A stretch of 64,000 bases of DNA from Thiobacillaceae bacterium. Its GTDB lineage: Bacteria; Pseudomonadota; Gammaproteobacteria; Burkholderiales; Thiobacillaceae. Position 1 is the stretch's first letter; each line of letters begins with the position of its first letter. The notes below the pieces were generated by a model that worked only from the letters and a program-made list of their open reading frames with translations, did not search any database and was not told where the DNA came from. The DNA lies in the NCBI GenBank assembly GCA_049578545.1, contig JBAUMF010000093.1, positions 31,117-95,116 of the forward strand, given 5' to 3'. Below are positions 26,613 through 60,225 of this stretch, piece after piece. A program made the translations under genes and the position numbers.

Positions 26613-27242
26613 ATGACTATCGATTCAATTGGAACCAGCAGCGTGTCCGCCACAGCCCCAATCCCCCCCAATCCTGCCGTTCAGAATCCGGGCGGGGACA
26701 GCGACGGCGATAATGATGGCAGTAGCGGCCGTGTCTCGGGTGGTCACCACCGGCACGGCGGCGGCGGGGCATTCATGAAAAGCGTCATGCAGGCTCTGGG
26801 CCAGTCCGGAGTTGCCTCAACTGATCAGTCTTCATCCAGTTCCAGCGTCAGCCAGGCCATGCATGCCTTCATGCATTCATTGTTTTCTGCCATGCAATCC
26901 ATGAATGGCAGCCAGACCGGGGGTGGCACGGATAGCGACGGGGATAATGACGGAAGCAGCACTGCCAGCAGCGTACCGTCAGGTTACAGTTCCCTCTCCA
27001 CCAACCTGCAGAACCTGATGCAGGCGGTCGGAAGCAGCCAGGGCGGTACCCAGAACAGTGCGGTTTCAAATCTGCAGAGTGCCTTCCAGAATCTGGTAAC
27101 GGCAATGGATGGAAGTTCAGCAACTACCAGCGGGACGCCGCCCACCCTGCAGTCATTCCTGCAGAACCTGCTGCCCGACCTCGCTTCACAACAAAGTATT
27201 TCCTCTGCCGCAGTGGGCGCCCTGGCAAATACTTCTGCCTGA
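26613..27242 (+). CDS. Low-complexity Ser/Gly/Gln-rich protein with duplicated DSDGDNDGSS motif
   Basis: Good RBS (AAAGGAG, 8 nt spacing). 209 aa with no signal peptide or TM. GGDSDGDNDGSSG and GGTDSDGDNDGSST are about 90 aa apart. Repeated SxLQxxxQNL segments near the C-terminus. Confidence 0.6.
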   Translation: MTIDSIGTSSVSATAPIPPNPAVQNPGGDSDGDNDGSSGRVSGGHHRHGGGGAFMKSVMQALGQSGVASTDQSSSSSSVSQAMHAFMHSLFSAMQSMNGSQTGGGTDSDGDNDGSSTASSVPSGYSSLSTNLQNLMQAVGSSQGGTQNSAVSNLQSAFQNLVTAMDGSSATTSGTPPTLQSFLQNLLPDLASQQSISSAAVGALANTSA

Positions 27243-27618: not shown

Positions 27619-28842
27619 TCAGGACTGGCGGGGCGACTGTCTTCCTTCACCTCGGTAGCACCGGAACGCGACAAACAGCGCCAAGTCGTAGGCAATCTTT
27701 AATACTCCGCAAGCTACCAGAGGCACAGCCAGCCAGCCGGCAGCAAACAGGGCTCCACCCAGCGACGGGCTCAAGGCTGAAGCGAGACTGCGCGGCACGG
27801 CGGTGAAGCTCGCCGCCGCCGCTCGCTCCGGTGGTGTAACCACGGCCATGACGAAAGCCGAACGAGTTGGCACATCCATCTGTGAGAGGGAGCTACGGGT
27901 CAACAGCAAGCCTAGCGCGACAGGCAGGCTGGATGCGAACGCAGCCAGGATCAGGCAGACGTTGGCCAGCATGTGGGTGAAAACCATGGTGCTGAGCAGA
28001 CCGATGCGTCTAGCCACCCAGGGCGCAGCGAGTTGCGACAGAGCGGTGAGCAGCCCAGCCCAGAAGAAGAACGAGCCCGCCGCGGCCAGCGACAGGTCGA
28101 AGCGCTGGAACAGCCATAGCGCGAGCAGCGAGTTGACCACCAGGCCGCCAGCGAACGCGTCTACCGAAAACAAGCCGGCCAGTCGGACCACAATGCCGCG
28201 CGAGGCGCTCAGTGGCAAAGGCGGTGCGGGCCGTTCGTGGGGCGGCGGTTCGGACAGCTTCCGGTACATCAGCCAGACTGCCAGGCCGACTCCACCATAG
28301 GCCACAAACATACCGCGTAAGGCAGCGAGCCGGTCGATGCCTTGCCCCATCAACACGTCCGGGACGGCGGCGGCCAGCGAGCCTACCGCTGCGCACAGCG
28401 CCCCGGTCAGGCTATAGCGCGCGAACAGCTCGGTGCGGGCATCACCCTGCGCCGCCTCCGCCAGACGCGCATGTTCCAGGGGCAGGAACACGCTCACATC
28501 GCCCGAACTGGGATTCAGGGTGCCTACAAAGGCCACCAGTAGCAGCGGCCAATAGGTGGAAACGCTGGCAAAGGCAAAACCGGTGGCCGCCATCAGCAAC
28601 GCTGCCGCCAGCAACAAACGGCGATGATGGAAACGATGGCCCCAGGCGCCCACTGCCAGTGTGGCGAGCGCCGAACCCAGTAGAGTGGCGGTGCTAAGCA
28701 GCCCTACCTCCCAAGTGCCGAACCCCAATGCCAGCAGATAGGCAGGAAGCAACACGGCGACGTAGCCATCGACGCCAGCGCGCAGCGCTCGCCCGATTAG
28801 GAGCAGGCGCGCTTCGGGCGCCACGCCAGCGGGCAGAATCAT
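27619..28842 (-). CDS. MFS transporter
   Basis: 407 aa, about 12 TM, very GC-rich. Its start overlaps the upstream stop (ATGA). Confidence 0.85.
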   Translation of the reverse strand: MILPAGVAPEARLLLIGRALRAGVDGYVAVLLPAYLLALGFGTWEVGLLSTATLLGSALATLAVGAWGHRFHHRRLLLAAALLMAATGFAFASVSTYWPLLLVAFVGTLNPSSGDVSVFLPLEHARLAEAAQGDARTELFARYSLTGALCAAVGSLAAAVPDVLMGQGIDRLAALRGMFVAYGGVGLAVWLMYRKLSEPPPHERPAPPLPLSASRGIVVRLAGLFSVDAFAGGLVVNSLLALWLFQRFDLSLAAAGSFFFWAGLLTALSQLAAPWVARRIGLLSTMVFTHMLANVCLILAAFASSLPVALGLLLTRSSLSQMDVPTRSAFVMAVVTPPERAAAASFTAVPRSLASALSPSLGGALFAAGWLAVPLVACGVLKIAYDLALFVAFRCYRGEGRQSPRQS

Positions 28843-29294
28843 TTGATGCCTACAAGCCGCGGGATCTTATTCAGCGGCGCCTCGGCACACCAGGCGTAAA
28901 ACGCATCGTAGATGACCATGCCATGCTTGAGCATCTCTTGGTCGTCAGCAAAGTTCAACGACAGGCCCTTGGAGATTGCCAACAGACCGGCGGCTTCCTT
29001 CGCCAGTTGCGGTGCGCCAAAGTCTACGGCACGAACGATCAGGGCAAGCTTGTCGAGCGGAGCGTCCCGCAGTTCATACTTTGCGATGAAGGCGTCGAAG
29101 CTGCACATGGCACCGTCGTGACCAAGTTCGGCCCCCGGCACATCATAAGGAATGGCGCTGGTTTGGGCGGCGACCTTCGTGACATCGCTACTTGGCACAT
29201 AGAGAAATTCCGGCGTTGGGTCGATGAACCTCGCCACCAACCACGGGCAGGCGATGCGGTCGATCTTGGGACGTTCGCGGGGAATCCATTTCAT
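28839..29294 (-). CDS. ChrB C-terminal-domain (chromate-resistance-associated) protein
   Basis: MKWIPRERPKIDRIACPWLVARFID...EFLYVP matches the conserved start of the Chrom_res/ChrB_C domain. 151 aa, stand-alone. Confidence 0.7.
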   Translation of the reverse strand: MKWIPRERPKIDRIACPWLVARFIDPTPEFLYVPSSDVTKVAAQTSAIPYDVPGAELGHDGAMCSFDAFIAKYELRDAPLDKLALIVRAVDFGAPQLAKEAAGLLAISKGLSLNFADDQEMLKHGMVIYDAFYAWCAEAPLNKIPRLVGIK

Positions 29295-29613: not shown

Positions 29614-30171
29614 TCAAGCGGCATAGCGCACGCAAGGGCATCGAAAGTAGGCTTTGACGCGCTCCGGCTGGCGAGCGATCACGGCCATGTGCTCTTCAAT
29701 GGCCGCCAGCAGCTTGGCCTGGGTGCGCGCCGGGACTTTCTTGCGGATGATCTGTGTCAAGTCGGCGTTCAGGCGTTCCTCTGGGTTGAGCTGCGGGCTG
29801 TAGCTGGGCAGGTAGAACACCTCCATGGCCTCCTTGTGCTTGGCTAGCCACTGCTTGACCGGTTTGCCATGATGCACGCCAAGGTTATCCAGAATGAGAA
29901 ACACCTTGCATCCAGCGTCCTCGATGAGGGCCTCGAAGAACTCGATGAGCCGTTCATGATTGAATGCCCCGTCAATGATCATCCAGCGAGCCTTGCCTTG
30001 GTTGGTTACGCTGGCGATCATCGACAGCTTGTATGGTTGAGGGGGGCTCTTGGCGACCCACAATGGACTGTCTCCCCCACTTACTGAGCGCCTCCTTTCA
30101 CCCCAAACTGAGTCATCTGTAGCTGATTGACCCTGGTAGATCTGGTTTACTCCGTCTCCAGGAAATATCAT
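29614..30171 (-). mobile_element. IS630-family transposase, C-terminal fragment only (inactive)
   Basis: KLSMIASVTNQGKARWMI, FLILDNLGVHH and YLPSYSPQLNPEERLNADL (DDE region), ending ...YFRCPCVRYAA. Recognisable similarity starts about residue 40 of the ORF (~30060). The N-terminal HTH half is missing. Confidence 0.8.
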
Positions 30172-30317
30172 TTCCCACTACGAAGTTTTTCTTCTTTTCA
30201 ATATTTTTAATATTGTTCAATTGGTTATGCGCATTTGACTTGCTCCCAGCAGGAAATTTAAACCGTTGGAGAGCGCACGGCAGTACCTAACCAATTGTTT
30301 TACCAGTATTTATTGTT

Positions 30318-30333
30318 TGGCATGAGGATTGCT
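30318..30333 (+). promoter_or_regulatory. Sigma-54 (-24/-12) promoter
   Basis: TGGCATgaggaTTGCT fits TGGCAC-N5-TTGCW with exact GG/GC spacing. It sits 117 bp upstream of the ATG at 30450, in an AT-rich spacer, with a sigma-54 activator gene in the same cluster. Confidence 0.6.
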
Positions 30334-30370
30334 TGAGACGTGTGCGGGGTAGAAACCCGTGATTAATCCT

Positions 30371-30411
30371 CTTGGGCTGCGAATGGAGACAGAGAAGTTA
30401 AGCAGCCCAAG
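30371..30411 (+). promoter_or_regulatory. Leader-region hairpin (10-bp perfect stem)
   Basis: CTTGGGCTGC (30371-30380) pairs with GCAGCCCAAG (30402-30411) around a 21-nt loop. It lies between the sigma-54 promoter and the GAGGAG RBS. Confidence 0.4.
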
Positions 30412-30449
30412 GGATTCTAATTTTGTAGCCTATTAACGAGGAGATCAAA

Positions 30450-31103
30450 ATGACCACTCTCAAAGAGCAATTGAGCACACACGTCGCGGCGTACGATCAC
30501 TGGGCAACCCGCCGTCGCTATGGGCCGGATGGGCATAACAACCGTAGTCTGTGGGTTCTTGCGTGCATGGACGAGCGGCTACCAGTGGACGAAGCGCTTG
30601 GCATACACGTCGACACTCCGGCTGGAGGGGGCGATGCGCATTGCTTCCGAAACGCCGGTGGAATCGTCACCGACGACGCAGTTCGCTCGGCGATGCTTAC
30701 ATGCAATTTCTTTGGCACCAAGGAAATTGTCATCGTGCAACATACGCAATGTGGCATGTTATCAGCGAACGCAGCCGATCTCGAAAAACATTTCCGCGAC
30801 AAGGGGATCGATACGGACAACATCGCATTGGACCCGACGCTGCCTGAAATGAAGCTAGGGAGCGGCGCCTTCGCCAAGTGGATCGGAATGATGGACGACG
30901 TGGACGAAACCTGCATGAAGACAATTGAGGCATTCAAGAACCATCCCCTCATTCCCAAGGATGTGGTCATCAGCGGTTGGGTCTGGGAAGTCGAAACACG
31001 CCGTCTGCGGGCGCCGACCCGCGATCCAGAGAAACGGGCAAGAACTGATGTCACGTCTGGCCAATTCGGTGTCAAAGGGAAGCAGCCACCGCGCTGGAGC
31101 TAA
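30450..31103 (+). CDS. Beta-carbonic-anhydrase-family enzyme (clade D-like; size of COS/CS2 hydrolases)
   Basis: Zinc and catalytic residues C39-x-D41-x-R43 (ACMDERL) and H98-x-x-C101 (HTQCG), plus FRNAGGIVTDDAVRS. 217 aa with a 38-aa N-terminal arm and a long C-terminal extension. Confidence 0.85.
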   Translation: MTTLKEQLSTHVAAYDHWATRRRYGPDGHNNRSLWVLACMDERLPVDEALGIHVDTPAGGGDAHCFRNAGGIVTDDAVRSAMLTCNFFGTKEIVIVQHTQCGMLSANAADLEKHFRDKGIDTDNIALDPTLPEMKLGSGAFAKWIGMMDDVDETCMKTIEAFKNHPLIPKDVVISGWVWEVETRRLRAPTRDPEKRARTDVTSGQFGVKGKQPPRWS

Positions 31104-31205
31104 CCACCCCTTAAGGAAAACCCAGAAACGTGGGCGCCTCATACGACGGCGTCCGCGTCTCTGCGTTTCTGAGGAATGCAGCATCCAAGGATTAGGGAGT
31201 TCAAT

Positions 31206-31457
31206 ATGCCTACTTATGATTATCAATGCACACACTGCAAGCTTCAGTTTGAAGCACATCATGCGATCAACGCATTCAGCCCGGTTTGCCCGGCGTGTGG
31301 GGGCGTGACCGAAAAAGTGATCCTCTCGGCTCCTGCGACGCATGGCAGCATGGCGCGAGGTCGTGATCTCGCAATGCGCTCACTTCAGCCGAAACTGGGC
31401 CAGGAACAACACGTACACGGACCTGGGTGCGGATGCGGGCGTCACCACCATTCCTAA
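31206..31457 (+). CDS. FmdB-family zinc-ribbon protein
   Basis: MPTYDYQCTHCKLQFE...SPVCPACGG (CxxC...CxxC) with a C-terminal GCGCGRHHH. GGGAG RBS before the ATG at 31206. Confidence 0.8.
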   Translation: MPTYDYQCTHCKLQFEAHHAINAFSPVCPACGGVTEKVILSAPATHGSMARGRDLAMRSLQPKLGQEQHVHGPGCGCGRHHHS

Positions 31458-31579
31458 ACGCAACCAGTTTTTTTGGCGTAGCCTTGCATGATAGTCACCG
31501 CGGAGCGCTGGATTGACTATGCCCAGCGCGCAACAGCGCCCGACTTGCGATAGCGGTGTCAGACTTGAGGAGAACAAAT

Positions 31580-33202
31580 ATGCCCGATAAGTTTTTTTCC
31601 CATCTTAATCCCATCCTGTTCTTGCAAACCTTTGTTGCCCAGAGCGTTGAGGTTGGCGCCAAGATAGGGGGTGGCAAGGGGGATGATCGCCTAAATTACA
31701 TCGAGCAGCTCGGTCTCACTGCGAGCAGTTGCTTCGAGACCGCATATCGCCAAGAGTTGGCGCAAGACGGACCCTTGGATCATAACAAGTACGCGGAAAT
31801 GATTGTCGGGATCAAGAATAAGATTGGCGGAAATTTTTCGCGTGAATCAAGCGAACCGGACATGGTGCGAGTGGTCAACACGCGCTGCCCTTTCGGGGAA
31901 GCTGTCATGCAGGCCCCGGGGCTCTGCAAAATGACCTCCAGTGTCTTCGGCGGGATTGCGGCACGCAACTTCGGCTATGCGAAGGTTATCCTGGACAAAC
32001 GCATTGCGACGGGAGACGGGATGTGCGAGGTACGCATTTATACCGATCCCAAGAAAGCAGCAGCCCTTGAGGGGGACGAATATCACCGGGAAGAGGGAAC
32101 CATCCGCGGTCGGGCGACTACAGTCAAAGCGCACCTTGCTAGGGAGCTGCGCCACGGGAAAGCATGGTGCGGTATCAGCGCGACCGAGGATGGCGACAGC
32201 CCTCCCATCGTGGCGAAGTCTCCGCCCATGCTCAACGCCCTGAAGATAGTAAAGGTAGTAGCACCGACCACAGCGACCGTGCTGATCACCGGTGAGACCG
32301 GGGTTGGCAAAGAGGTCATTGCCCGTCGCATCCACGCGATGAGTGAACGTTGGAACAGGAATTTCGTTGCCGTGAACTGCGGCGCAATACCAGAAAATCT
32401 AGTCGAGACGACACTATTCGGACATGAGCGCGGCGCATTTACCGGCGCCTACGAAGTCCATCACGGACTGTTTGAGCAGGCAGAGGGCGGAAGTCTGTTT
32501 CTTGACGAGATCGATTCGTTGCCTCTCGCCGCGCAAGCGCGTCTGTTACGGGTGCTCCAGGGAGGTGAGTTCGAGCGGGTCGGGGGGAAACAGCGCCTAT
32601 CGACGAATGTACGCGTGATCGCCGCGGCCAGTATGCGGTTGGACAAGTTCATAGCGGACGGTACGTTCCGGATGGATCTCTACTATCGGCTAAACGTGGT
32701 ACCCATCCATCTCCCTCCGCTGCGCGAACGACGCGACGATCTCTTGCCCCTGGTGAACCACATCCTTGCGCACCTCTCCGTGAGGTACAACAAAGTCATC
32801 AAAGAATTGAGCGAGAACGCGATGGCGTGGGTGATGCAGTATGATTGGCCCGGAAATGTGCGTGAACTAGAAAACATACTGGAGCGCTCGTTCCTGTTCT
32901 CAGCCGGCCCAATCATGTCCGAACTACTGCTTCCCCAAATCAGCGGCGGCGCGCCAGTAAGTGTCGGACAACCCCTTGATTTGTCGCTCAAGGTCGCGAA
33001 ACAGCAGGCGGCTGAACAGGTGGAAGCTCTAATCATCAAGGAAGCGCTTACGCGTTTCCACGGCAATGTCAGCGAGGTCGCGAAATCTTTGGGACTTACG
33101 CCGAGGGCTATCCATCAGAAGATCAATTCGCACAGCATAGATCCGAACAATTATCGCTCCCGGGCAAGACTCAAGGTCGTGCATCTGGGTAAGGGGAAGT
33201 AG
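31580..33202 (+). CDS. Sigma-54-dependent transcriptional activator with V4R-like sensory N-domain
   Basis: N-domain CPFGEAVMQAPGLCKMTSSVFGGIA...ATGDGMCEVRIY. AAA+ core with GETGVGKE, GAFTGA and LFLDEID. C-terminal Fis-type HTH NVSEVAKSLGLTPRAIHQKI. GAGGAG RBS before the ATG at 31580. Confidence 0.9.
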   Translation: MPDKFFSHLNPILFLQTFVAQSVEVGAKIGGGKGDDRLNYIEQLGLTASSCFETAYRQELAQDGPLDHNKYAEMIVGIKNKIGGNFSRESSEPDMVRVVNTRCPFGEAVMQAPGLCKMTSSVFGGIAARNFGYAKVILDKRIATGDGMCEVRIYTDPKKAAALEGDEYHREEGTIRGRATTVKAHLARELRHGKAWCGISATEDGDSPPIVAKSPPMLNALKIVKVVAPTTATVLITGETGVGKEVIARRIHAMSERWNRNFVAVNCGAIPENLVETTLFGHERGAFTGAYEVHHGLFEQAEGGSLFLDEIDSLPLAAQARLLRVLQGGEFERVGGKQRLSTNVRVIAAASMRLDKFIADGTFRMDLYYRLNVVPIHLPPLRERRDDLLPLVNHILAHLSVRYNKVIKELSENAMAWVMQYDWPGNVRELENILERSFLFSAGPIMSELLLPQISGGAPVSVGQPLDLSLKVAKQQAAEQVEALIIKEALTRFHGNVSEVAKSLGLTPRAIHQKINSHSIDPNNYRSRARLKVVHLGKGK

Positions 33203-33343
33203 CGAGTGCCAGGGTCTGCTGCAAGCTTTGAAGCGCTTGTGTGGCAGGCTACGGTAGTGGGGGTCATACATTTATTCCAGTGCTAATGATGGCGTGATAT
33301 CCACATGGCAGTGCGGGTCTGCTGGAAGCTCGGGTTAACTTTG

Positions 33344-33360
33344 CAACACGATAACTTAAC
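33344..33360. repeat. Right copy of the 17-bp perfect inverted repeat (CAACACGATAACTTAAC)
   Basis: Exact reverse complement of 27386-27402. Confidence 0.6.
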
Positions 33361-33364
33361 CCCT

Positions 33365-33385
33365 AGCGGCAGGCGCCGCTTTTTC
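33365..33385 (+). terminator. Rho-independent terminator
   Basis: AGCGGC-aggc-GCCGCT followed by TTTTT, downstream of the activator gene. Confidence 0.6.
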
Positions 33386-33388
33386 TTG

Positions 33389-34786
33389 TTACAAATTGGT
33401 GTCTCGCCAGTTACCGCCTAGCGCCTTGAGCAGGGCGACGCTGGCGAGCAGTCTGCGCCCAGCGATGTTAAGCCTGCTGCTGTCGGCAGCAAGGAAGCTT
33501 GCCTCGGCCGTGACGACGTTCAGGTAGCTGACGGTGCCGGCTTTGTACTGGTTGTTGGCCTGCTCCAGCGAATCTGCGGCCGCTTTTGTTGCCTGTTCCT
33601 GGACTTCAGCTTCCTCGGCCAGCACCCGCAGGGCCGCCAGATTGTCCTCGACATCCTGAAAGGCACCGAGAACGGTCTGCCGATACGTGGCGACGCTCTG
33701 GTCGTATGCAGCGACCGCCTGTTCCTTCTGGGCTGTGCGGGCACCCGCATCGAACAGGGTCAGAGCCAGGGCCGGGCCAAGGGACCAGAAGCGATTGGGC
33801 AGGGTCAGCAGATTGTCAAAGCTGGAATTCTGGAAGCCGCCCGTGCCGGAAAGAGTCAGGGTCGGGTAGAAGGCCGCCTGCGCAACGCCGATTCCGGCGT
33901 TGGCTGCCGCAACGCGGCGTTCTGCGCCGGCGATGTCAGGGCGCCGCTCCAGCAGCGTCGACGGAACCGTGGCCGGAATGTCGGGCAGTGCCGGCAAGCC
34001 GCTAACGATCCCGATATTCAGCTGGCTGGGAGGCTTGCCGATCAGGATCGCAATGGCGTGTTCGAGCTGGGCTCGCGCGACCTCGAGGTCTATGGCCTGG
34101 GCCTGCGTCGACTTCAGCTGCGTTTCAGCCTGGGTCACGTCGAGACGCGCAGCAACGCCAGCCTGATAGCGATTGCGGGTGATTTCAAGCGAGCGTTGGT
34201 AGACTTCAACATTGCGCTCAAGCAGCTGCTTCTGGGCGTCAGTGACGCGAAGTTGCAGGTAGGACTGGACCAGGGTTGCCTGGGCGCTGAGCAGCGCTGC
34301 CCCAAGGTCGGCGGCACTGGCTTCGGCCGTCGCCTGGCCCGACTCGACCTTGCGCCGGATGCCGCCCCAGACGTCGGCTTCCCAGCTTGCACTGAGCGAC
34401 AGGCGGTCAATGGTGGCACTTCCCGTTGTTCCTGCGGCCCCATTCCCCCGGGTCGCCGACAGCGCCGTGCCGAGCGTTGGATAGTAGGCGGCCCGCGCTG
34501 TACCAAGCAAGGCCAACGCCTGGCGGTACTGCGCCTCGGCAGCCCTTACATTCTGGTTTGAAACTTCCACCTGGCTGACCAGGGCGTTGAGCTCGGGATC
34601 GCGATAGATTTCCCACCAGTGGCCCCTGTTGGTCAATTCCTTCGGCTCGGCCGGTTTCCAGTTGCCAGCTTCCTTGAAGGCTGCTGGCACCTCAACGGCA
34701 GGTTTGTGGTAGTCGGGCCCCACGGCACATCCACCGAGGATGGCCGTCGTCAGGGCAAAGGCCAGCAGGCCCGGTTTGTTGCTCAT
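33389..34786 (-). CDS. RND efflux outer-membrane factor lipoprotein (NodT family)
   Basis: Lipobox in MSNKPGLLAFALTTAILGGC, and two OEP repeats. Trimmed from 34864 to the ATG at 34786. Confidence 0.9.
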   Translation of the reverse strand: MSNKPGLLAFALTTAILGGCAVGPDYHKPAVEVPAAFKEAGNWKPAEPKELTNRGHWWEIYRDPELNALVSQVEVSNQNVRAAEAQYRQALALLGTARAAYYPTLGTALSATRGNGAAGTTGSATIDRLSLSASWEADVWGGIRRKVESGQATAEASAADLGAALLSAQATLVQSYLQLRVTDAQKQLLERNVEVYQRSLEITRNRYQAGVAARLDVTQAETQLKSTQAQAIDLEVARAQLEHAIAILIGKPPSQLNIGIVSGLPALPDIPATVPSTLLERRPDIAGAERRVAAANAGIGVAQAAFYPTLTLSGTGGFQNSSFDNLLTLPNRFWSLGPALALTLFDAGARTAQKEQAVAAYDQSVATYRQTVLGAFQDVEDNLAALRVLAEEAEVQEQATKAAADSLEQANNQYKAGTVSYLNVVTAEASFLAADSSRLNIAGRRLLASVALLKALGGNWRDTNL

Positions 34787-34832
34787 TGCTTTGCTCCCGG
34801 AGTCCTGCGGACCCCTATCTGGATAATTGAAA

Positions 34833-37800
34833 TCATGGCCGGGCCGGATCGGTGGCGACGTCACCTGTTGTTGAGTAGTGACGCTTGCCCAATGCCCAGA
34901 GTCGCATGCGATCGAGGTAAAGATATACCACCGGTGTTGTATACAGCGTCAGCATCTGGCTCAGGATCAGGCCACCGACGATGGAAATGCCCAGTGGCCG
35001 CCGCAGTTCCGAGCCGTCGGAAAAGCCGATGGCCAGGGGCAAGGCTCCGAACAGCGCAGCCATGGTTGTCATCATGATCGGGCGGAAGCGTATAAGGCAG
35101 GCTTGAAAGATGGCGTCGCGCGGACTGAGGTCGTGCTGACGCTCGGCGTCCAGCGCGAAATCCACCATCATGATGGCGTTCTTCTTGACGATGCCGATCA
35201 GCAGGATGATCCCGATCAGGGCCATGATGGAAAATTCGCTGCCGACTGCGAGCAGGGCCAGCAGAGCGCCAACCCCGGCAGAGGGCAGGGTCGACAGAAT
35301 GGTGATGGGATGCACCAGACTCTCGTACAGTATGCCCAGAACCAGATACACCGCGAGCAGAGCGGTAAGGATCAGCAGCGGCATGCTCTGCAGGGAGGCC
35401 TGGAACGCCTTGGCCGTGCCCTGAAAGCTGCCATGCACCGAGGTTGGCACCCCGATCCGTGCCATGGCGCCTTCGATCGCCTTGGTGGCGGCAGACAATG
35501 AAACACGGACCGGGAGGTTGAACGAAATGGTCGAGGCGACGAACTGGCTCTGGTGATTGACCGCTAGGGGTGTGCGGGTCGGCTCGATGTGGGCGATGGA
35601 AGCGAGGGGCACCTGCTGGCCGGTCGCCGTGATGAGGTAAACGTCCTTGAGCGTTTCCGGACTTTGCAAGTAAGGCGGCGCGGCTTCCATGATGACGTGA
35701 TACTGGTTCAGGGGGTTGTAGATGGTTGACACCTGGCGCTGGCCGAACAGGTCGTTCAATGTGGCATCGATGGTGAGCTGATTGATGCCCAGGCGCGCAG
35801 CGGCATCGTGGTCCACCACGATGGTTGTCTGCTGGCCTTTGTCCTGCTCATCGGTGTTCACGTCGGTAAGTTCCGGGAGGGCGGCAAGAGCGCGGCGGAT
35901 GCGCGGTTCCCACGCGCGCAGCTCGTCAATGCGGTCAGCCTGCAATGTGTACTGGTACAGGGCACCGCTTGAGCGGCCGCCGACCCGGATGTCCTGAACC
36001 GGTTGCAGAAACAGGCTGGCACCGGGTTCGCGGGCGAGTTGGCGGCGCAGGCGGGCCATGACCTGGTCCACCGAAACCTTCCGCTCGGCAATGGGTTTCA
36101 GGGCGACGAACATGAAGCCGGAATTGAGCTGGCCGCCGCCGGTGAAGCCGACGACATTGTTGACGGCTGGATCGCTGCCGACGGTCTTGACGAATTGGCT
36201 CAGTTTGGTTCGCATGGCCTGGAAGGAAATGCTCTGGTCCGCCTGAATGCTGCCGATCATGAGACCGGTGTCCTGCTGCGGGAAAAATCCCTTGGGCACA
36301 ATAACGAAGAGATAAATATTGAGACCTACGGTGGCGAGCAGCAGCAGCAGCATCAAGCGGCTATGCGCGAGAGCCCAGTCGAGGCTGGTTTGGTAACCCC
36401 GCAACATGGCATTAAAGATCCACTCGCTGGCGTGAAAAAAGCGGCCATGGGACGCCTCTGATTCCGGGAGCAACAGGCGGGCGCACATCATTGGCGTCGT
36501 CGTCAGCGAGATCAGCAACGAAATGAGAATGGCGGAGGAAAGGGTGACGGCGAATTCACGAAAGAGGCGGCCGATGATGCCACCCATCAGCAGGATTGGC
36601 ACAAACACGGCGATCAGCGAAAGGCTCATGGAAAGCACTGTGAAGCCGACTTCCCTGGCCCCTTTCAGCGCAGCCTGGAAAGGCGCCATGCCGTTCTCGA
36701 TATGGCGCGAGACGTTCTCCAGCACCACGACCGCATCATCCACGACGAAGCCGGTGGCGACGATAAGGGCAATAAGCGAGATGTTGTTGAGGCTGAAGCC
36801 GGCCAGGTACATAACCCCGAAGGTCCCGACCAGCGATACCGGAACGGCGACGCTGGGAATCAGTGCGGCTCGCCCATGGCGCAGAAAGAGGAAGACCACG
36901 AGGATGACCAGGCTAACGGAGATGCCCAGAGTGCGTTCAACCTCGTGGAGGGAAGCGCGAATGGTGGTGGTGCGATCCATAACGACCTGCAGATCGATGG
37001 CCGCCGGGATCGAGGCACGCAATTGCGGCAACAGGGCCCTGACGCGGTCCACGGTATCGATAATGTTGGCGCCCGGCTGGCGGTTAAGGATCAGCATGAC
37101 AGCCGGTCTGCCGTTGGCCAGGCCCGCATTGCGGATGTCCTGCTCGCCGTCCACAACGCTGGCGACATCGCCGAGACGAATGGCCGAGCCATTGCGATAG
37201 GCGACGACGATGGGGATATAGTCAGCTGCTTTCTTGGCCTGATCGTTGGCCAGGATCTGCCAGTGGCGAGTGTCGTCCTCGATGGCGCCCTTGGGACGGT
37301 TGACGTTGGTGGTGGCAATGGCTGAACGTATGGTCTCGGGCGCGATCGCGAGCTTGCTCAGCGCCGTCGGATTGAGTTCGACCCGCACCGCCGGCAGCGA
37401 GCTGCCGCCCACGGTCACCTGGCCGATTCCGTCAACCTGGGCGATCTTCTGCGCCAGGATAGTCGAGCCGGCATCGTACATCTGGCCCCGGCTCATCGTG
37501 TCCGAAGTCATCGACAGGATCATGATGGGTGCATCGGCCGGATTGACCTTGCGATAGATCGGATTGCTAGGCATCCCGGTTGGCAGCAGCGAGCGCGCGG
37601 CGTTCAACGCCGCCTGCACGTCGCGGGCGGCACCATCGATGTTGCGATTAAGATCAAACTGCAAGGTGATCCGCGTGCTGCCCAGGGAACTGCTGGAGGT
37701 GATTTCAGTGACGCCGGCGATCAGGCCCAGGGAGCGCTCCAGGGGTGTCGCCACCGTTGTCGCCATGGTGTCCGGGCTCGCGCCTGGCAGCGAGGCCTGC

Positions 37801-37940
37801 ACCGAGATGGTCGGAAAATCCACCTGTGGCAACGGCGCCACGGGCAACTGGGTAAACGCCATGATACCGGCCAGGGCAATCCCCAGGGTCAATAGCGTGG
37901 TCGCCACGGGCCGGTTGATGAAGGTGGCAGAAATGTTCAT
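34833..37940 (-). CDS. mdtC: RND multidrug efflux permease, MdtC-like
   Basis: 1035 aa, 12-TM RND architecture, N-terminus [11 protein letters not shown]. It is the second of two tandem RND permeases, as in mdtABC. Confidence 0.85.
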
Positions 37941-37958
37941 CGCGCGGCGATAACGTTG

Positions 37959-40900
37959 TTACGGGGTTTGCCGGACAATCCTGCTTCCCCAGCCAGACAC
38001 CCTTTGCGCCAGGCGATCAAAGGCGAGATAGATTACGGGCGTGGTGAACAGGGTCATGACCTGGCTGAATATCAGACCACCAACCATGACGATGCCAAGC
38101 GGATGGCGGATTTCAGAACCGACCCCGGTACCCAGCATCAGCGGCAGGGCACCGAGCATGGCCGAAAGGGTGGTCATCAGGATGGGCCGGAAGCGCAGCA
38201 GACAGGCTTCGAAGATGGCATCGCGCGGCGATTTGCCGTGATTGCGCTCGGCGTCGAGGGCAAAGTCGATCATCATGATGGCGTTCTTCTTGACGATGCC
38301 GATGAGCAGGATGATGCCGATGATGGCGATGATGCCAAGGTCGCTGCCCGAAACCATCAGGGCCAGCAATGCCCCGACGCCGGCCGAGGGGAGCGTGGAG
38401 AGAATCGTCACCGGATGGATATAACTCTCATAAAGCACGCCGAGGACGATGTACATGGTGCACACGGCCGCAAGGATCAGCAGCAGCGTATTGTTCAGCG
38501 ATGCCTGGAAGGCCAGTGCGGCACCCTGGAAACTTGTTTGCACGCTGGCTGGCAGACCGATGTTGAGGCTGGCGTCGCCGATCGCCTTGACGGCCTGACC
38601 GAGGGAAACGCCCGGAGCCAGGTTGAAGGAGATCGTCGTCGCCGGGAACTGGGCAATGTGGTTGATGGCAAGCTGAGTCGTTTTTTCGGTGACGCGGACG
38701 ATGGACAACAGGGGGACATGCGTGCCGCTCGGTGACACGATGTAGATGCTGTTCAGGGCATCGAGGCCGCGCTTGAACTCCGGCTTCACTTCCAGCACGA
38801 CGCGGTAAAGGTTGGACTGGGTGAAGATCGTGGAAACCAGGCGCTGGCCAAAGGCGTTATAGAGCGCGTTGTCGATCATCGCCGGTGTGATGCCGAGGCG
38901 CCCGGCCGTGTCGCGGTCGAACTCGACATAGGCTTGCAGCCCCTGGTCCTGCATGTCGCTGGCTACATCAGCCAGCTCCGGCAACTGGCGCAGGCGCTCC
39001 ACCAGCCTGTTGGCCCACATCGCCAGTTCCTCCGGACTGGCATCCTCAACGCTGAACTGATATTGGGTGCGGCTCACCCGATCCTCGATGGTGAGATCCT
39101 GGACCGGCTGCATGTACATCGAGATCCCGGGAATCCGGGCAAGCTCTGGCTGCAAGCGGCGGATTACGCCGACGGCGTCGGTGTCCCGGTCCGCCTTGGG
39201 CACCAGATTGATCAGCAAGCGGCCGCTGTTCAGCGTGGTGTTGGTGCCGTCGACACCAATGAAAGAGGATACGCTTTCGACTGCCGGATCCTGCAGCACG
39301 GCATCGGCCATGGCCTGTTGCCGCTCGGCCATGCCCGCGAAGGACACCGATTGCGGCGCCTCGGTTATGCCCTGGATGAGGCCGGTGTCCTGTATCGGGA
39401 AGAATCCCTTGGGCACGACGATGTAGAGAATGACGGTGAGCGCCAGAGTGCCGATGGCCACCAGCAGAGTGGCGCCCTGGCGATCGAGCACCCAGTTGAG
39501 CCACACGCCGTAGCGGCGGATCACCGCCGCGATGAAGTCACCGCTGGCACGGAAGAAGCGACCCTGCTCGGCCTCCGGCGTATGGTGAAGCAGGCGGGCG
39601 CACATCATCGGTGTCAGGGTCAGGGACACCACCGCAGAGATCAGGATCGATACCGCCAGGGTAATGGCGAACTCGCGGAACAGGCGGCCGACCACATCGC
39701 CCATGAACAGCAGCGGGATCAGCACGGCGATCAGCGAGAAGGTCAGCGAAATGATGGTGAAGCCGATCTGCTCGGCCCCTTTGAGCGCCGCCTGCAGGGG
39801 CGGATCGCCGGCCTCGACGTAGCGGGAGATGTTCTCGATCATGACGATCGCATCGTCGACAACGAAGCCGGTGGCAATCGTCAATGCCATCAGCGTCAGG
39901 TTGTTGATGGAGAAGCCCGCCAGGTACATGACGCCGAATGTGCCCACCAACGACAGCGGCACGGCAACGCTGGGGATGATGGTCGCCGGCACGTTGCGCA
40001 GGAAAACGAATATGACCATGACCACCAGGGCCACCGACAACAGCAGTTCGAACTGGACGTCATGCACCGACGCCCGGATCGTGGTGGTGCGGTCGGTCAG
40101 CATCCTGACCTGGACCGAGCCGGGGAGGGCGGCCTGCAGCTCGGGCAGCAGTTTCTTGATGCGGTCCACCGTCTCGATGACGTTGACCCCGGGTTGGCGC
40201 TGGATGTTGAGGATGATGGCTGGTGTCTGGCGTTTGCCCACCCCTGCCCAGGCGGCCAGGCGATTATTCTCGGCACCGTCCACGGTGTCGGCGATATCGC
40301 TGATGCGAATGGGGGCGCCGTTTCTGTATGCGACTACCAGCTGTTGGTAATCAACTGCCGACTTCAACTGATCGTTCGCATCCAGGGTTGAGGCCCGCAT
40401 CGGACCATCGAAGCTGCCCTTGGGCATGTTGACGTTGGCATTGCCGATCGCAGTGCGAATATCGTCGAGGTTAAGGCCATAGCTGGCCAGCGCCCTGGGG
40501 TTGACCTGGACCCGCACTGCCGGCCGCTGGCCACCCCCTATGCTGACCAGGCCCACACCCGGCAGCTGCGACAGTTTCGGCGCCAGCCGGGTGTCCACCA
40601 GGTCCTCGACCTGGGGCAGCGGCAAGGTGTCGGAAGTGACCGCCAGCGTGATAATGGGTGCGTCGGCCGGATTCACCTTGCTGTATATGGGCGGCATCGG
40701 CAGGTCGGTTGGCAGGAACGACGAGGCGGCATTGATCGCTGCCTGGACTTCCTGCTCGGCGATGTCGAGGCCGAGGTTAAGGCTGAACTGCAACGTGATT
40801 ACCGATGCGCCACCGGAACTGGTTGACGACATCTGGTTCAAACCCGGCATCTGGCCAAACTGGCGTTCCAGCGGCGCGGTAATCGACGAGGTCGTGACGT

Positions 40901-41069
40901 CGGGACTGGCGCCCGGATAGAGCGTGGTGACCTGGATCGTCGGGAAGTCCACCTCGGGCAATGCCGAGATGGACAACACCTTGTAGCCCACCAGTCCGGC
41001 CAGCAGGATCGCGACCATCAGCAAGGAAGTTGCCACCGGCCGCTCAATGAACGGGCGGGAAGGGTTCAT
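37959..41069 (-). CDS. mdtB: RND multidrug efflux permease, MdtB-like
   Basis: 1036 aa, N-terminus [11 protein letters not shown]. It is the first of the tandem RND permeases, and its start overlaps the mdtA stop. Confidence 0.85.
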
Positions 41070-42328
41070 GAACCTTTCCGGCCTGCCGGCGCCGCCTTGC
41101 CGCTGCCTGGCGCGGAAGCACCCGCCGCCGGCGGGCGCTTCGCATGGCCGGCCTGACCCGGTCCCTGGTTCCCCCGCTGATTGCCGGCCGTCGCCAGGTC
41201 GACCTTGGCCCCCTCGCGCAGCTTGTCGGTGCCATCGGTCACCACTTGCTCGCCTGGCGCAAGGCCCTTGTCCACCGCGACGGTCTCGCCCGAGGTGGGA
41301 CCGAGCACCACCGGCCGCACGCTGACCGTGCGATCGGCACCAACGACATAGAAGTAGGTGCCCTTGGTTCCACGCTGAATCGCAGCGGTCGGAACGAGAG
41401 TGGCACCATGCCGCGTTTCGACGTGCAGACGCGCATTGACAAACTGGTTGGGGAATAGAACATTGTCGGTGTTGGCGAATTCGGCCTTGAGCTTGACGGT
41501 ACCGGTAGTGGTATCGATCTGGTTGTCGACCGCCAGCAGCTTGCCTGTAGCCAGTTTTGTCTTGCCGTCGCGGTCAAGGGCGTCGACGCTCAGCGTGGCC
41601 CCGCCGCGCATATGTGACAGCACCGTGCCGAGATTATCCGAAGGAATGGCGAAGATGACGGCGATTGGCTGGGTCTGGGTGATGACCACGAGGCCAGTGC
41701 TATCGGCAGCGTGGATCATGTTGCCTGTGTCCAGCTGACGCAGACCAAGCAGGCCGGAGACCGGCGCAGTGATCCGGGTGAACTCCAGCTGCAGTTTGTC
41801 GCTTTCGACCTGGGCCTGGTCCGCTTTGACCGTGCCATCGTACTGCTGCACCAGAGCCGCCTGGTCATCCACCTGCTGGCCGGCGATGGAGTCCTTGGCC
41901 AGCAGGTCGCGATAGCGCTTGAGGTCGAGCCGGGCGCTGGCCAGCAAGGCCTGGTCGCGCAGCAGTTGACCGATGGCCTGGTCGAGCTGGGCCTGAAAGG
42001 TGCGGGGATCGATCTCGGCCAACACCTGGCCCTGATGCGCAAATTGGCCTTCGCCGAAATTGACCCGGATCAGTTGACCGTCCACCCTGGATTTGACCGT
42101 CGTGGTGGTGCGGGCGGTAACAGTACCCAGGGCATCGATGACCACGTCGATGTCACCGCTGCGGGCGGCGGCAGCCGCCACCGGCACCGGCCGGTCGGCG
42201 GCATCCTTGCCGCCATGCCCTGCGCCTTGCGGCGTCTGGGTATTGGACCTGCCATGGAAAACAAAGGCGGCGATTCCGGCTGCCACAATCAGGCCAAGCG
42301 CCAAGCGCACCATCATTCTTCTTGTCAT
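41066..42328 (-). CDS. mdtA: RND efflux periplasmic adaptor (membrane fusion protein), MdtA-like
   Basis: N-terminal anchor, lipoyl/beta-barrel MFP pattern and a Gly/Pro/Ala-rich C-terminal tail. Heads the mdtABC-OMF operon. Confidence 0.85.
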
Positions 42329-42952
42329 CTAAGCTTTATTCCTTCCGGCCCAACAATATGTGCGCCACTCCCGCAGTTGGGGCGGCCGATCGCGAAAGTG
42401 TATCCGATTTCACCGAGTTCGCGTCGTGCCCAGATCGGCTGCAAATCCAGATATGGCTGCATCAGGCAAGGAAGAAAGGCTGCATTTTCTGTCACTGAAG
42501 ACGGTCCCTGCTGTTGACGATTAAATGGATTCACTAACGCAAGACAGGAAAGCGGAACTGGAAAGCCTCGTGCATGGCTGCAGCCTGTAACCGAAAACCA
42601 ATCTACCTTGGGTGTGTTAACCGCCCTGGTTATTTCGATATCGACTCGGCCGATTCACCCAGACCAGACAGATACGTCACCAGCGGAATGCCATGGTGCC
42701 TTGAGGCATCAGCATGCTGACCTCAACCGTGTCGGCACCCAAGGTCCAGCTTTCCCCATTTGGAGGTCATGGCAAATTTGTGCTCAGTCAGATAGCCCGG
42801 CCTGCTGGTTCGATGAACGTCGTTTTCGCCATCCTCCTTTGCGGACAACAGCATTATTGCGTATGTCATGATTTGACTCTATGCGTTGCCGCACGGTTGT
42901 TGCATCCTGTTCCCTTCGATGAGTATGCTTTGTCAGGGTTTTGCAAGCGAAC

Positions 42953-42977
42953 GTAAAGGTAGGTAAACCCGCGTGAA
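42953..42977 (+). promoter_or_regulatory. CpxR-box array
   Basis: GTAAA-ggtag-GTAAA-cccgc-GTGAA. The first two half-sites fit the CpxR consensus GTAAA-N5-GTAAA perfectly, and a third degenerate half-site is in phase. It ends 30 bp upstream of the cpxR ATG. Confidence 0.55.
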
Positions 42978-43006
42978 AGTTGAATCGTCATATTTAGCAT
43001 TGTCAT

Positions 43007-43723
43007 ATGTACACGAACGTTGACCGCCCAACCCCGCGTCTCCTCCTGGCTGATGACGATGTCGAATTGTGCTTGATGCTCAAGGACTACCTTCTGCGCG
43101 AAGCCCTGGAGGTGGAAATAACCCATGATGGGCAATCTGCCCTCAACAAGGCATTGAACGAGGACTTCGATATCATTCTGATGGATGTAATGATGCCCAG
43201 GATGTCAGGCCTGGATGCACTTCGCGCCCTCCGGGCGCAAAAACAAACCCCGGTACTCATGCTCACCGCCCGCGGCGAGGACATGGACACCGTTCTTGGC
43301 CTGGAGCTCGGTGCAGACGATTACCTGCCCAAGCCTTGCAATCCCAAGGTGCTGCTCGCCCGCATTCGGGCAGTCTTGCGCCGCAGCGAGCCACACCTCA
43401 CAGAGTCGGGCACCCCGGCCACAATCCTCCAAATTGGCGATTTGACCCTGAACTCGGGGGCCCGCAGTGTGAAACTGAAAGGCAATGAGGTTCCGATGAC
43501 CAGCACCGAGTTCAGCATTCTGGAGATCCTGTTGCGTGAGGCCGGCCACTTGGTCACCAAGGGGCAGCTGTCTGAGCAGGTACTGGGCCGTCCCCTGGGC
43601 CGCTTTGACCGAAGCCTGGACATGCATGTCAGCAATTTGCGTCAGAAGCTTGGCCCCTCTCGGGATGGAGGCTCTCGTATCAAGACTATCCGTGGAAGCG
43701 GTTTTCAGTACGTGCTGGCCTAG
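43007..43723 (+). CDS. cpxR: OmpR-family response regulator, CpxR-like
   Basis: Close resemblance to E. coli CpxR along its length: DIILMDVMMP, VLMLTARGEDMD, LGLELGADDYLPKP, FDRSLDMHVSNLRQKL. Confidence 0.85.
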   Translation: MYTNVDRPTPRLLLADDDVELCLMLKDYLLREALEVEITHDGQSALNKALNEDFDIILMDVMMPRMSGLDALRALRAQKQTPVLMLTARGEDMDTVLGLELGADDYLPKPCNPKVLLARIRAVLRRSEPHLTESGTPATILQIGDLTLNSGARSVKLKGNEVPMTSTEFSILEILLREAGHLVTKGQLSEQVLGRPLGRFDRSLDMHVSNLRQKLGPSRDGGSRIKTIRGSGFQYVLA

Positions 43724-43730
43724 CGTCATC

Positions 43731-52963: not shown

Positions 52964-52972
52964 GCTCAGACC

Positions 52973-55536: not shown

Positions 55537-56063
55537 GATGGCTCCCTGAATTGGCTTAGTCCCGCCAGCATCTTTCGCAGCAGGCGATCGAATTCCGCCA
55601 CCTCTGCGGGGCTGAAATCGGCCCACTGCTGCTCGATCAGCTTCCAGATTACCGGCAGCACTTTCAGGATCAGCTTGTGGCCGGCTTTGGTCAGCGACAA
55701 GTCCACCCGGCGCCGGTCTTCCGTGCTCGGCTTGCGGCCGACCCAGCCGGCGTTGACCAGTTCATCAGTCAGGCGCGTTACGTTGGTGGGGGAGGCAATC
55801 AGGGCACCGCTCAGATGGCTGGGATTAAGCCGGTTGTCCTCGCTGCTGAGCAGCATGGCGAGCGCGAGAAAGGATGAACTGTTTAGACCGAACTCGGCAA
55901 GGTGCCGGTTGTAGACCTCGTCCAGTTCACTGAAGACGAAGAAAAACAGGCGGTTGAGCACGACCCGATCCTGCGGCATGCCGGGAAGCTGGCGGGCGAT
56001 GAGGTCGATGCCTTGTTCGAAAAAGGAGAAATCCTGGTTCATGCCGATGACTGGGGGTCGCAT
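55533..56063 (-). CDS. MarR-family transcriptional regulator (EmrR-like position)
   Basis: Winged-helix MarR pattern (LNSSSFLALAMLL...PTNVTRLTDELVNAGWVGRKPSTEDRRRVDLSLT). First gene of the efflux operon. An alternative start is at 56042. Confidence 0.8.
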   Translation of the reverse strand: MRPPVIGMNQDFSFFEQGIDLIARQLPGMPQDRVVLNRLFFFVFSELDEVYNRHLAEFGLNSSSFLALAMLLSSEDNRLNPSHLSGALIASPTNVTRLTDELVNAGWVGRKPSTEDRRRVDLSLTKAGHKLILKVLPVIWKLIEQQWADFSPAEVAEFDRLLRKMLAGLSQFREPS

Positions 56064-56080
56064 GAGATATCATAACATTG

Positions 56081-56107
56081 GTAATTATTACATTCGTAAT
56101 TATTTAG
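56081..56107. promoter_or_regulatory. Candidate MarR operator
   Basis: Palindrome GTAAT-T-ATTAC (56081-56091), followed by a second GTAATTATT (56096-56104). It lies in the AT-rich divergent spacer between marR and the ybhG-like gene. Confidence 0.3.
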
Positions 56108-56254
56108 TATCTTGGTATGCAAAGCAATATGAAATCTGGCAAAGCGTTGGGAAAAATAAGCGGAATGCGTCCCGTGCGAATTCGCAAAGCTTTCCCGCGA
56201 CTGGTCCAGCAGAATTGATTAACATACAAAAGGGGCAAACGTGAAGGACGTGAC

Positions 56255-59070: not shown

Positions 59071-59105
59071 GCGACTCCAACCCGTCGCGCCGCGGCGGCG
59101 GCGCC

Positions 59106-60212: not shown

Positions 60213-60225
60213 GGGTGAAGACGTC

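Follow-up and report, generated by a model that had tools for sequence, protein, structure and literature searches.

Archaeal and bacterial carbon disulfide (CS2) hydrolases belong to clade D of the beta-carbonic anhydrases and are devoid of carbonic anhydrase activity (PMC12035519, PMC8209446), and very low carbonic anhydrase activity has been described for the carbonyl sulfide (COS) hydrolase of Thiobacillus thioparus (PMC12035519). On the regulatory side, the FisR regulon of Acinetobacter baumannii places a sigma-54 activator gene divergently to the genes pdo-sqr-tauE (PMC7315123), and the sensor domain MetOD1 is related to H-NOX, V4R and ATC-hydrolase domains, with a three-cysteine cluster in common with the phenol sensors PoxR and MopR (PMC5847659). 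Here we describe a locus in which such elements are combined, situated within 64,000 nucleotides of contig JBAUMF010000093.1 of a Thiobacillaceae bacterium (the whole stretch is referred to as the window). The genes for a CS2/COS-hydrolase-type homologue of beta-carbonic anhydrases, an FmdB-type zinc-ribbon protein and a MetOD1-containing sigma-54 activator follow one another on the forward strand behind a sigma-54 (-24/-12) promoter and constitute a self-contained module of ~3.2 kb, which we consider likely to be horizontally mobile and to serve the inducible hydrolysis of CS2 and/or COS. The enzyme type is already known, and the regulatory module around it is apparently undescribed: the searchable literature yielded no account of the sigma-54/MetOD1 activator with its enhancer motif, of the FmdB-type partner, of the RNA features or of the spread in nitrifiers and methanotrophs. 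This agrees with an earlier note on this DNA, which knew of no described regulon of the kind.

The CS2/COS-hydrolase-type enzyme and its linked genes

The first gene (30450..31103, +) encodes a protein of 217 residues with the zinc ligands C39, H98 and C101 and the Asp-Arg dyad D41/R43, that is, the full residue set of a beta-carbonic anhydrase that the earlier note had listed. The match to Pfam Pro_CA (PF00484; 35.1 bits, cut-off 25.7) places it in the beta-carbonic anhydrase superfamily. Among all PDB sequences, the top match is the CS2 hydrolase of Acidianus A1-3 (3TEN; 179 bits, E 8.9e-52), where the alignment pairs residues 6-191 with residues 4-187, spans 186 residues and includes both terminal arms; the BLASTP identity is 49% (94/192). 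By comparison, the clade-D carbonic anhydrases of the PDB do not exceed 84 bits (E 7e-23 or weaker). For the COS hydrolase of T. thioparus (3VQJ), the alignment is limited to the core residues 31-106 (62 bits, E 4e-16). Judged by closest full-length similarity, with the arms and the inserted region included, the protein is a member of the CS2 hydrolase subgroup, which favours the earlier assignment to the COS/CS2-hydrolase type over a housekeeping carbonic anhydrase.

Relative to the Acidianus enzyme, the protein contains an insertion of two residues (P26 D27) and another of six (T56-G61, TPAGGG), and its C-terminal tail past the last aligned position comprises 26 residues, nine more than the 17 of 3TEN. 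The CS2 hydrolase S1p of Acidithiobacillus thiooxidans reportedly carries PD at 26-27, TPAGGG at 56-61 and a C-tail longer by nine residues; it is said to form octamers only and to hydrolyse CS2 and COS with no CO2 hydration, and its insertions and longer tail have reportedly been proposed as a block to catenane formation. The insertions and tail of the 217-residue protein are what we take to be the same S1p-type signature.

The same sequence is deposited at NCBI as MGA7181107.1 under the name 'MAG: carbonic anhydrase [Thiobacillaceae bacterium]', and no NCBIfam model covers the enzyme group, the best match reaching 31 bits where the cut-off is 221. All available homologues are at least 79% identical. 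Between phyla, the proteins retain 81-89% identity and the four-fold degenerate sites 25-47%, near saturation, in a comparison of the hydrolase genes of the window and of loci L071, L066, L055, L056 and L077 (GC content at third codon positions, GC3, 0.54-0.87). Such conservation points to strong constraint, the source of which is plausibly oligomeric assembly. CS2 hydrolases are reportedly highly abundant proteins.

Downstream of the enzyme gene lies the gene for the FmdB-type zinc-ribbon protein (31206..31457, +; 83 residues), whose family membership, as proposed in the earlier note, is upheld by two profiles, TIGR02605 (48.7 bits, cut-off 31.3) and Zn_ribbon_8 (PF09723; 46.2 bits, cut-off 34.4). 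The ribbon cysteines C8, C11, C28 and C31 (CxxC..CxxC) are invariant, and the protein has in addition a conserved helix, HGxMARGRDxAMRSLQP, and a C-terminal HxHGPGCxC motif. The subfamily is narrow, with 94 relatives found, all at least 53% identical. The structural model has a predicted local distance difference test (pLDDT) score of ~88 for the ribbon and a disordered tail. Given the conserved metal-type motifs and the ZIP and Nramp genes found nearby, our preferred guess is that the FmdB-type protein handles zinc for the zinc enzyme. The ZIP transporter gene stands between the FmdB and activator genes on the plasmid of Methylobacter sp. YRD-M1 (NZ_CP091425.1, L083), and the Nramp gene directly 3' of the activator gene in Acidithiobacillus sp. 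(L092/L093).

The linkage of the three genes was followed in a survey of one genome per species, which returned 178 enzyme relatives; the best 80 loci, with proteins 81-96% identical, were analysed. The hosts of these best 80 of 178, counted roughly from the record titles, comprise ~34 ammonia oxidisers (Nitrosomonas, Nitrosospira, Nitrosovibrio), 8 methanotrophs (Methylobacter, Methylomonas, Methyloglobulus), 13 sulfur oxidisers (Sulfuriferula, Sulfuricella, Thiobacillus, Chromatiaceae), a few Nitrospirota and one Pseudonocardia. The FmdB-type gene directly follows the enzyme gene in 73 of the 80 loci, and in 69 the gene for an activator whose N-domain is homologous (45-84% identity) is found no more than 2 kb away, positioned downstream or upstream on the same strand (the former as in the window) or, as in most Nitrosomonas, upstream and divergent. 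When all open reading frames (ORFs) of the loci were clustered, the enzyme, FmdB and activator genes were the only ones shared. Of the 77 loci whose upstream DNA is long enough, 66 combine the activator, the FmdB-type gene and the -24/-12 element, five lack all three, and the rest are contig-end truncations or variant promoters. The triad described in the earlier note is conserved in these loci through three arrangements, in support of the dedicated wiring of enzyme to activator that the note proposed. In contigs of Acidithiobacillus sp., the triad recurs with an enzyme 87% identical to that of the window. The Pseudonocardia orthologue (L071 1765-8841) is without FmdB, sigma-54 promoter and MetOD1 activator; its gene is flanked by a GntR gene and by a GAF histidine kinase/LuxR pair, with a gene for a persulfide dioxygenase (PDO)-rhodanese and genes for DUF202 membrane proteins near.

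At the DNA level, the window resembles the closest loci over 30122/30172-33200/33316 only, the flanks being unrelated. On the left, the module adjoins an IS630-family transposase remnant (29614..30171, -; Pfam DDE_3) that retains the C-terminal DDE part only (positions 182-296 of 299 of the NCBIfam profile transpos_IS630, with a score under the cut-off) and lies outside the conserved enhancer. On the Methylobacter plasmid, the module is bracketed by insertion sequences in the order IS3, enzyme, zinc ribbon, ZIP transporter, activator, cupin, IS1. The GC content of the spacer 30172-30449 (41.4%) is the minimum of all 278-bp stretches in a window that averages 59.2%, and falls to 26.7% at 30181-30240; the enzyme, FmdB and activator genes have GC3 values of 0.65, 0.55 and 0.66, lower than those of the neighbouring genes (0.69-0.82). 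The AT-rich spacer and less GC-biased genes reported in the earlier note are thus confirmed, and, because homology stops at the edges, an insertion-sequence remnant adjoins, a plasmid copy is flanked by insertion sequences and GC3 is lower, its description of the module as an insert, which we would extend to a horizontally mobile one, is supported. The contents of 30172-33385 were as the note described them, but the boundaries shift: the left edge falls nearer ~30122-30161, with an activator-site palindrome spanning 30172, and the right end is marked by a terminator-like GC hairpin followed by a T-run (33365..33380, +), which faces a convergent efflux-pump gene ending at 33389.

Promoter, activator and RNA elements

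The -24/-12 element TGGCATGAGGATTGCT, that is TGGCATgaggaTTGCT, spans 30318..30333 (+) and is the sole match to TGGCAYN5TTGCW in the window. Taken alone the match is weak evidence, since 0.30 matches are expected and at least one was found in 23 of 100 shuffles. An equivalent element is located 5' of the orthologous gene in 69 of the 77 loci, and is absent exactly where the activator is absent. The consensus, the conservation, an associated enhancer motif and the cognate activator together identify 30318-30333 as a sigma-54 promoter with predicted RpoN dependence, consistent with its recognition in the earlier note.

Upstream of the promoter, the 13-bp palindrome GAAG-N5-CTTC is typically present in two copies at a spacing of 20 bp, as established from the upstream-region alignment and a motif count. 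The strict form is found in 42 of 59 non-redundant upstream regions; among other 200-bp segments from these loci its frequency is 1.3%, and among shuffles 0.4%. The distances from the -24 element are fixed at -78/-97 in the Nitrosomonas type and at -136/-157 in the window type. In the window, the candidate enhancer (upstream activating sequence) palindrome GAAGTTTTTCTTC occupies 30182..30194, 136 bp upstream of the -24 element. A degenerate first site, GGAAATATCATTTCC (30161..30175), overlaps the start of the IS630-remnant ORF and presumably also binds the activator. It does not conform to strict GAAG-N5-CTTC; its aligned counterpart in close relatives is the conserved block AAGCAATATCACTTCC. 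Between enhancer and promoter, the AT-rich stretch 30195..30317 contains a conserved IHF-like TTCAAT..GGTTATG block and probably supplies a DNA bend of the IHF type. The window holds four GAAG-N5-CTTC matches where 0.94 are expected. Those at 4247, 14624 and 62528 were set aside as single copies; the sole promoter-regex hit near them, ~130 bp from 14624 (TGGCATTGCCATGGC), ends in GGC and not in TTGC.

The activator (31580..33202, +) is a sigma-54 enhancer-binding protein of 540 residues with Pfam matches to MetOD1, Sigma54_activat and HTH_8. Its start is most likely the ATG at 31580 and not the GTG at 31556, because a GAGGAG lies six bases upstream of the former. The MetOD1 sensor domain spans ~31700-32038 (PF18546; 54.4 bits, cut-off 23.8, E 1.8e-14), and is followed by an AAA+ domain (32207-32710; Sigma54_activat, PF00158, 4.4e-66) with the Walker A motif GETGVGK (32291-32311) and GAFTGA (32432-32449), and by a C-terminal Fis-type helix-turn-helix (HTH; 33014-33124; HTH_8, PF02954, 3.6e-09), the combination that characterises sigma-54 enhancer-binding proteins. 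The earlier note had called the activator V4R-type. The GAFTGA motif and the dedicated role hold, and the sensor does share the fold superfamily and the three-cysteine cluster with V4R-type sensors, but the domain itself is MetOD1: neither V4R (PF02830) nor XylR_N gives a Pfam match in the N-terminal region, which leaves the protein outside the XylR-DmpR subgroup, and the NCBIfam model V4R_TF_MobR matches the AAA+/HTH part only, far under its cut-off.

Within the N-terminal region, C103, C116, C149, E53, K79 and the stretch SVFGGIAA are invariant in 39 relatives, actinobacterial MetOD1-kinase fusions included. The AlphaFold2 model of residues 1-200 (pLDDT 83.9, predicted template modelling score 0.84) matches Bet3/TRAPPC3 (E 6e-5), H-NOX domains and the sensor domain with which PoxR binds phenol (template modelling score ~0.52), so that the predicted fold is of the kind that buries small hydrophobic ligands. 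The invariance of C103, C116 and C149 across architectures argues for a structural metal site like the zinc cluster of PoxR/MopR, rather than for a specialised redox switch. A stand-alone MetOD1 gene adjoins a histidine kinase gene in Cereibacter, which confirms the sensor role only, and the gene neighbourhood of the actinobacterial MetOD1-HATPase fusions was uninformative. Paralogous MetOD1 sigma-54 activators with 49% N-domain identity (L088 4700-5060, L089, L090) stand divergent from a DUF938-SDR-cupin operon, which is preceded by a separate -24/-12 promoter, TTGGCACATAAACTGCTT, and by palindromes of a related form, GAAA-N5-TTTC; in some methanotroph loci, SDR or cupin genes follow the triad. 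As these paralogues control DUF938-SDR-cupin operons, the MetOD1 sensor family appears not to be tied to a single ligand.

Two structured RNA elements accompany the enzyme gene. The 5' leader (30345..30416, +) folds into a hairpin P1 (30345-30359) and a long hairpin P2 (30365-30416), with a minimum free energy of -36.1 kcal/mol (z = -4.1), and the two-hairpin layout recurs in Sulfuriferula- and Nitrosomonas-type loci with other stem sequences. RNAalifold, applied to a plain MAFFT alignment of the leaders, recovered P1 only, and P2 is backed by the per-sequence folds. The second element, a stem-loop between the enzyme and FmdB genes (31123..31170, +; core stem 31129-31158), is present in nearly all loci, and the consensus fold of 48 spacers comprises 10 pairs that are 79-96% canonical, several of them switching between GC, AU, CG and UA, which constitutes covariation. 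As it has no U-run, the hairpin is probably a stabiliser of the mRNA 3' end, a partial terminator or an attenuator, which would reduce the expression of the downstream genes and thereby set the ratio of enzyme to partners. The leader matches no Rfam family; the search gave a single chance miRNA-type match, located on the intercistronic hairpin. The leaders of Nitrosomonas have an additional third 5' hairpin, and in several Nitrosomonas loci (L031-L041; e.g. L031 4961-5257) P1 is interrupted by an insertion of ~145 nt with terminal inverted repeats, GGCCGTTGAAAAAC...GTTTTTCAACGGCC. The same insertion occurs in the hydrolase-FmdB spacer of another locus (L011) and looks like a miniature transposable element.

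The surroundings of the module are rich in efflux systems. On its right flank is a convergent RND efflux operon, and 33389-45089 encodes an outer-membrane factor, two RND pumps, a membrane-fusion protein and an OmpR-type two-component pair; an MFS pump with a membrane-fusion protein and an outer-membrane protein is encoded at 51440-55626. To the left are a gene for a ChrB C-terminal domain (28839-29294) and an MFS gene. The runner-up AT-rich spot of the window (56001-56300, ~42% GC) is a divergent control region that separates a MarR-type gene (55533-56063, -) from an HlyD/ABC-2 transporter operon (56255-61335, +). An ORF at 26613-27242 (+) encodes 209 residues rich in Ser, Gly and Asp, with a repeated GGxDSDGDNDGSS motif and a His/Gly run, and has no obvious function.

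Proposed mechanism and competing explanations

We suggest that the enzyme acts as a bacterial CS2 hydrolase of clade D and of the A. thiooxidans S1p type, which would convert CS2 to COS and H2S, and COS to CO2 and H2S, with little or no hydration of CO2. Transcription would start from the sigma-54 promoter and require the adjacent activator, which may bind the paired GAAG-N5-CTTC sites ~80-160 bp upstream and reach the promoter across the AT-rich bend. Detection of a signal by the MetOD1 domain would release the activator ATPase, the signal being either the hydrophobic gas itself or sulfide or sulfane sulfur derived from it. The structured leader and the hairpin behind the enzyme gene would render the enzyme mRNA stable and abundant, and lower the amounts of the two downstream products. 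The FmdB-type protein would act as a dedicated accessory, most likely in zinc handling or enzyme maturation, or alternatively in modulation of the activator. The H2S released would be consumed by the sulfur-oxidation machinery of the host and, in several nitrifiers, by a co-transcribed SQR, persulfide dioxygenase and TauE; indeed, it is the continuation of the operon into pdo-sqr-tauE in some nitrifiers that favours H2S as a product.

Genes of this kind near the enzyme gene include those for SQR-like flavoproteins (18 loci), TauE sulfite exporters (14 loci), DsrE-like proteins (12 loci) and PDO-type metallo-beta-lactamases (7 loci). In Nitrosovibrio and Nitrosospira, the activator gene stands divergent to enzyme-FmdB-PDO-SQR-TauE, arranged with short intergenic gaps, an operon whose gene content appears sufficient to take CS2/COS all the way to sulfite and its export. 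A more far-reaching interpretation, which we put forward tentatively, is that the MetOD1 activator would be the first dedicated transcriptional sensor of CS2/COS on the H-NOX/V4R fold, that ammonia oxidisers and methanotrophs would use the inducible hydrolase, at times in one operon with SQR-PDO-TauE, to shield their copper monooxygenases from CS2-type inhibitors, and that the FmdB-type protein would serve the enzyme as its dedicated factor for zinc insertion.

Several observations weigh against the reading of the module as a CS2/COS hydrolysis system. Identity to the solved CS2 hydrolase is no higher than 49%, and every named relative in the databases is labelled a carbonic anhydrase. The hosts are mostly autotrophs, for which a genuine carbonic anhydrase would also be sensible. 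Most loci, the window included, are without a nearby sulfide-oxidation gene, and neither pdo nor sqr was found within the 64 kb. The proposed role of the FmdB-type protein draws on its conserved metal-type motifs, ZIP or Nramp genes being nearby in few loci, and a sigma-70 scan found no promoter, in particular none for the activator gene in the present arrangement.

The earlier note inferred substrate-inducible expression; induction by the product, sulfide or sulfane sulfur, is equally plausible. It is possible that, with module and enzyme unchanged, the activator senses the product, such that sulfide or sulfane sulfur modifies the sensor cysteines, perhaps via a DsrE-like carrier, in a feed-forward response to sulfide stress that resembles FisR in function. 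The placement of pdo-sqr-tauE in the enzyme-FmdB operon of Nitrosospira and Nitrosovibrio reproduces the architecture of the FisR regulon (PMC7315123), three cysteines of the sensor are invariant, and product sensing is favoured by the DsrE-like gene located behind the divergent activator gene of 12 Nitrosomonas loci. The fisR locus of A. baumannii, which was reached by an SQR search (chromosome NZ_CP077849.1, 3.66 Mb), speaks against it: this FisR has an N-domain of 125 residues to which MetOD1 gives no match, and its alignment with the window activator is limited to AAA+ and HTH (42% identity), which, with FisR of A. baumannii as the reference, indicates that the window activator is not a FisR orthologue. 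The sensor cysteines are likewise invariant in every MetOD1 architecture, including the actinobacterial kinase fusions, and correspond to the PoxR/MopR zinc cluster (PMC5847659), suggesting a structural metal site, and the sulfide-oxidation genes are absent from most loci. Sensing of a bound ligand is favoured by the sensor fold together with the invariance of its cysteines across unrelated architectures. Matches to PDO on plasmids led to BigR/ArsR-type or unrelated loci. Several complete A. baumannii chromosomes, NZ_CP077849.1 among them, are filed as plasmids in the plasmid collection.

That the enzyme is instead a CO2-hydrating beta-carbonic anhydrase of the ordinary kind, which would provide autotrophic growth with bicarbonate or CO2 under the control of sigma-54, is unlikely. 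The complete set of zinc and catalytic residues, the Pro_CA match, the very strong sequence conservation and the prevalence of chemolithoautotrophs and methanotrophs among the hosts would all be compatible with such an enzyme. However, the protein is far nearer to the CS2 hydrolase, whose extra arms and inserted region it possesses, than to any active carbonic anhydrase, and the characterised CS2 hydrolases lack carbonic anhydrase activity (PMC12035519). In addition, genes for SQR, PDO and TauE share the operon, or a PDO-rhodanese gene lies nearby, and none of the 80 loci contains carboxysome or RuBisCO genes.

We regard as improbable a further explanation, in which the substrate recognised by enzyme and sensor is another heterocumulene or thiocarbonyl compound, such as an isothiocyanate, cyanamide/carbodiimide, or a breakdown product of xanthate or dithiocarbamate. 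Clade-D specificity does shift with small changes in the tunnel (PMC12035519), and the paralogous MetOD1 activators control unrelated DUF938-SDR-cupin operons. The name FmdB derives, moreover, from an amide-utilisation operon. Against this, the insertions and C-tail relative to 3TEN agree with those reported for S1p, a biochemically characterised CS2/COS hydrolase, and the sulfide-handling neighbours indicate H2S as the product. The alternative raised in the earlier note, that the triad is the bicarbonate/CO2-supply remnant of a sigma-54-controlled carboxylase cluster of the acetone-carboxylase type that would have lost its partner genes at the IS630 junction, is very improbable and was rejected, for although an IS630 remnant adjoins the module and some carboxylase clusters do use sigma-54 activators, the triad stands alone in ~70 genomes with unrelated flanks, none of the 80 loci contains carboxylase genes, homology to relatives stops at the module edges, and the remnant lies outside the conserved enhancer.

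If the proteins are CS2/COS hydrolases, genome-based estimates of COS/CS2 consumers in soils, sediments and wastewater overlook nitrifiers and methanotrophs. Ammonia monooxygenase is classically inhibited by CS2 (Hyman, Kim and Arp 1990, cited in PMC7170481), and protection of nitrifiers from CS2 by the module is an attractive possibility, whereby an inducible hydrolase could account for differences between strains in their sensitivity to sulfur-based nitrification inhibitors. The promoter, the 13-bp palindrome, the sensor domain and the small metal-binding partner together represent a tractable candidate biosensor for CS2/COS or sulfide, and the module offers a candidate first function for the bacterial MetOD1 domain.

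Comparison with known systems

The enzyme of A. thiooxidans S1p is likewise a clade-D homologue of beta-carbonic anhydrases, and differs in setting, in that the host here is a neutrophilic bacterium of the Thiobacillaceae type; no description of a sigma-54/MetOD1/FmdB context was found for S1p. With the Acidianus enzyme (3TEN/3TEO), the window protein has in common the zinc site, both terminal arms and the helical inserted region missing from ordinary clade-D carbonic anhydrases, whereas the Acidianus enzyme is archaeal and assembles as an octamer/hexadecamer catenane, and the window protein has the two insertions and the longer tail. No FmdB or sigma-54 context is known for the Acidianus enzyme, and the haloarchaeal homologue locus that was examined has neither FmdB nor activator. 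The COS hydrolase of T. thioparus THI115 (3VQJ) shares the clade and the zinc ligands with the window protein and hydrolyses COS, but its tunnel is narrowed by a different loop and it acts downstream of thiocyanate hydrolase, which is absent from the surveyed loci.

In the FisR-pdo-sqr-tauE regulon of Cupriavidus and A. baumannii, a sigma-54 activator likewise adjoins its target operon. Loci of the Nitrosospira type carry the genes of this regulon, pdo-sqr-tauE, behind the promoter, with an SQR 58-60% identical to the SQRs of Acinetobacter (58% for A. baumannii). The FisR operon, by contrast, includes no hydrolase or FmdB gene, and the window locus no pdo or sqr.

The FmdB of the Methylophilus methylotrophus formamidase operon (TIGR02605 family) similarly has an N-terminal CxxC..CxxC ribbon and a gene positioned directly after a hydrolase gene. 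The subfamily described here is separate from it, tightly conserved and found only with this enzyme, and is distinguished by the extra helix and the HxHGPGCxC motif. Finally, the activator shares with XylR, DmpR, PoxR and MopR the overall layout of an N-terminal sensor of the V4R/H-NOX/Bet3 fold with a three-cysteine cluster, an AAA+ domain with GAFTGA and a Fis-type HTH. In contrast to these regulators, however, the sensor is a Pfam MetOD1 domain rather than XylR_N with V4R, and the target is one hydrolase gene rather than an aromatic pathway.

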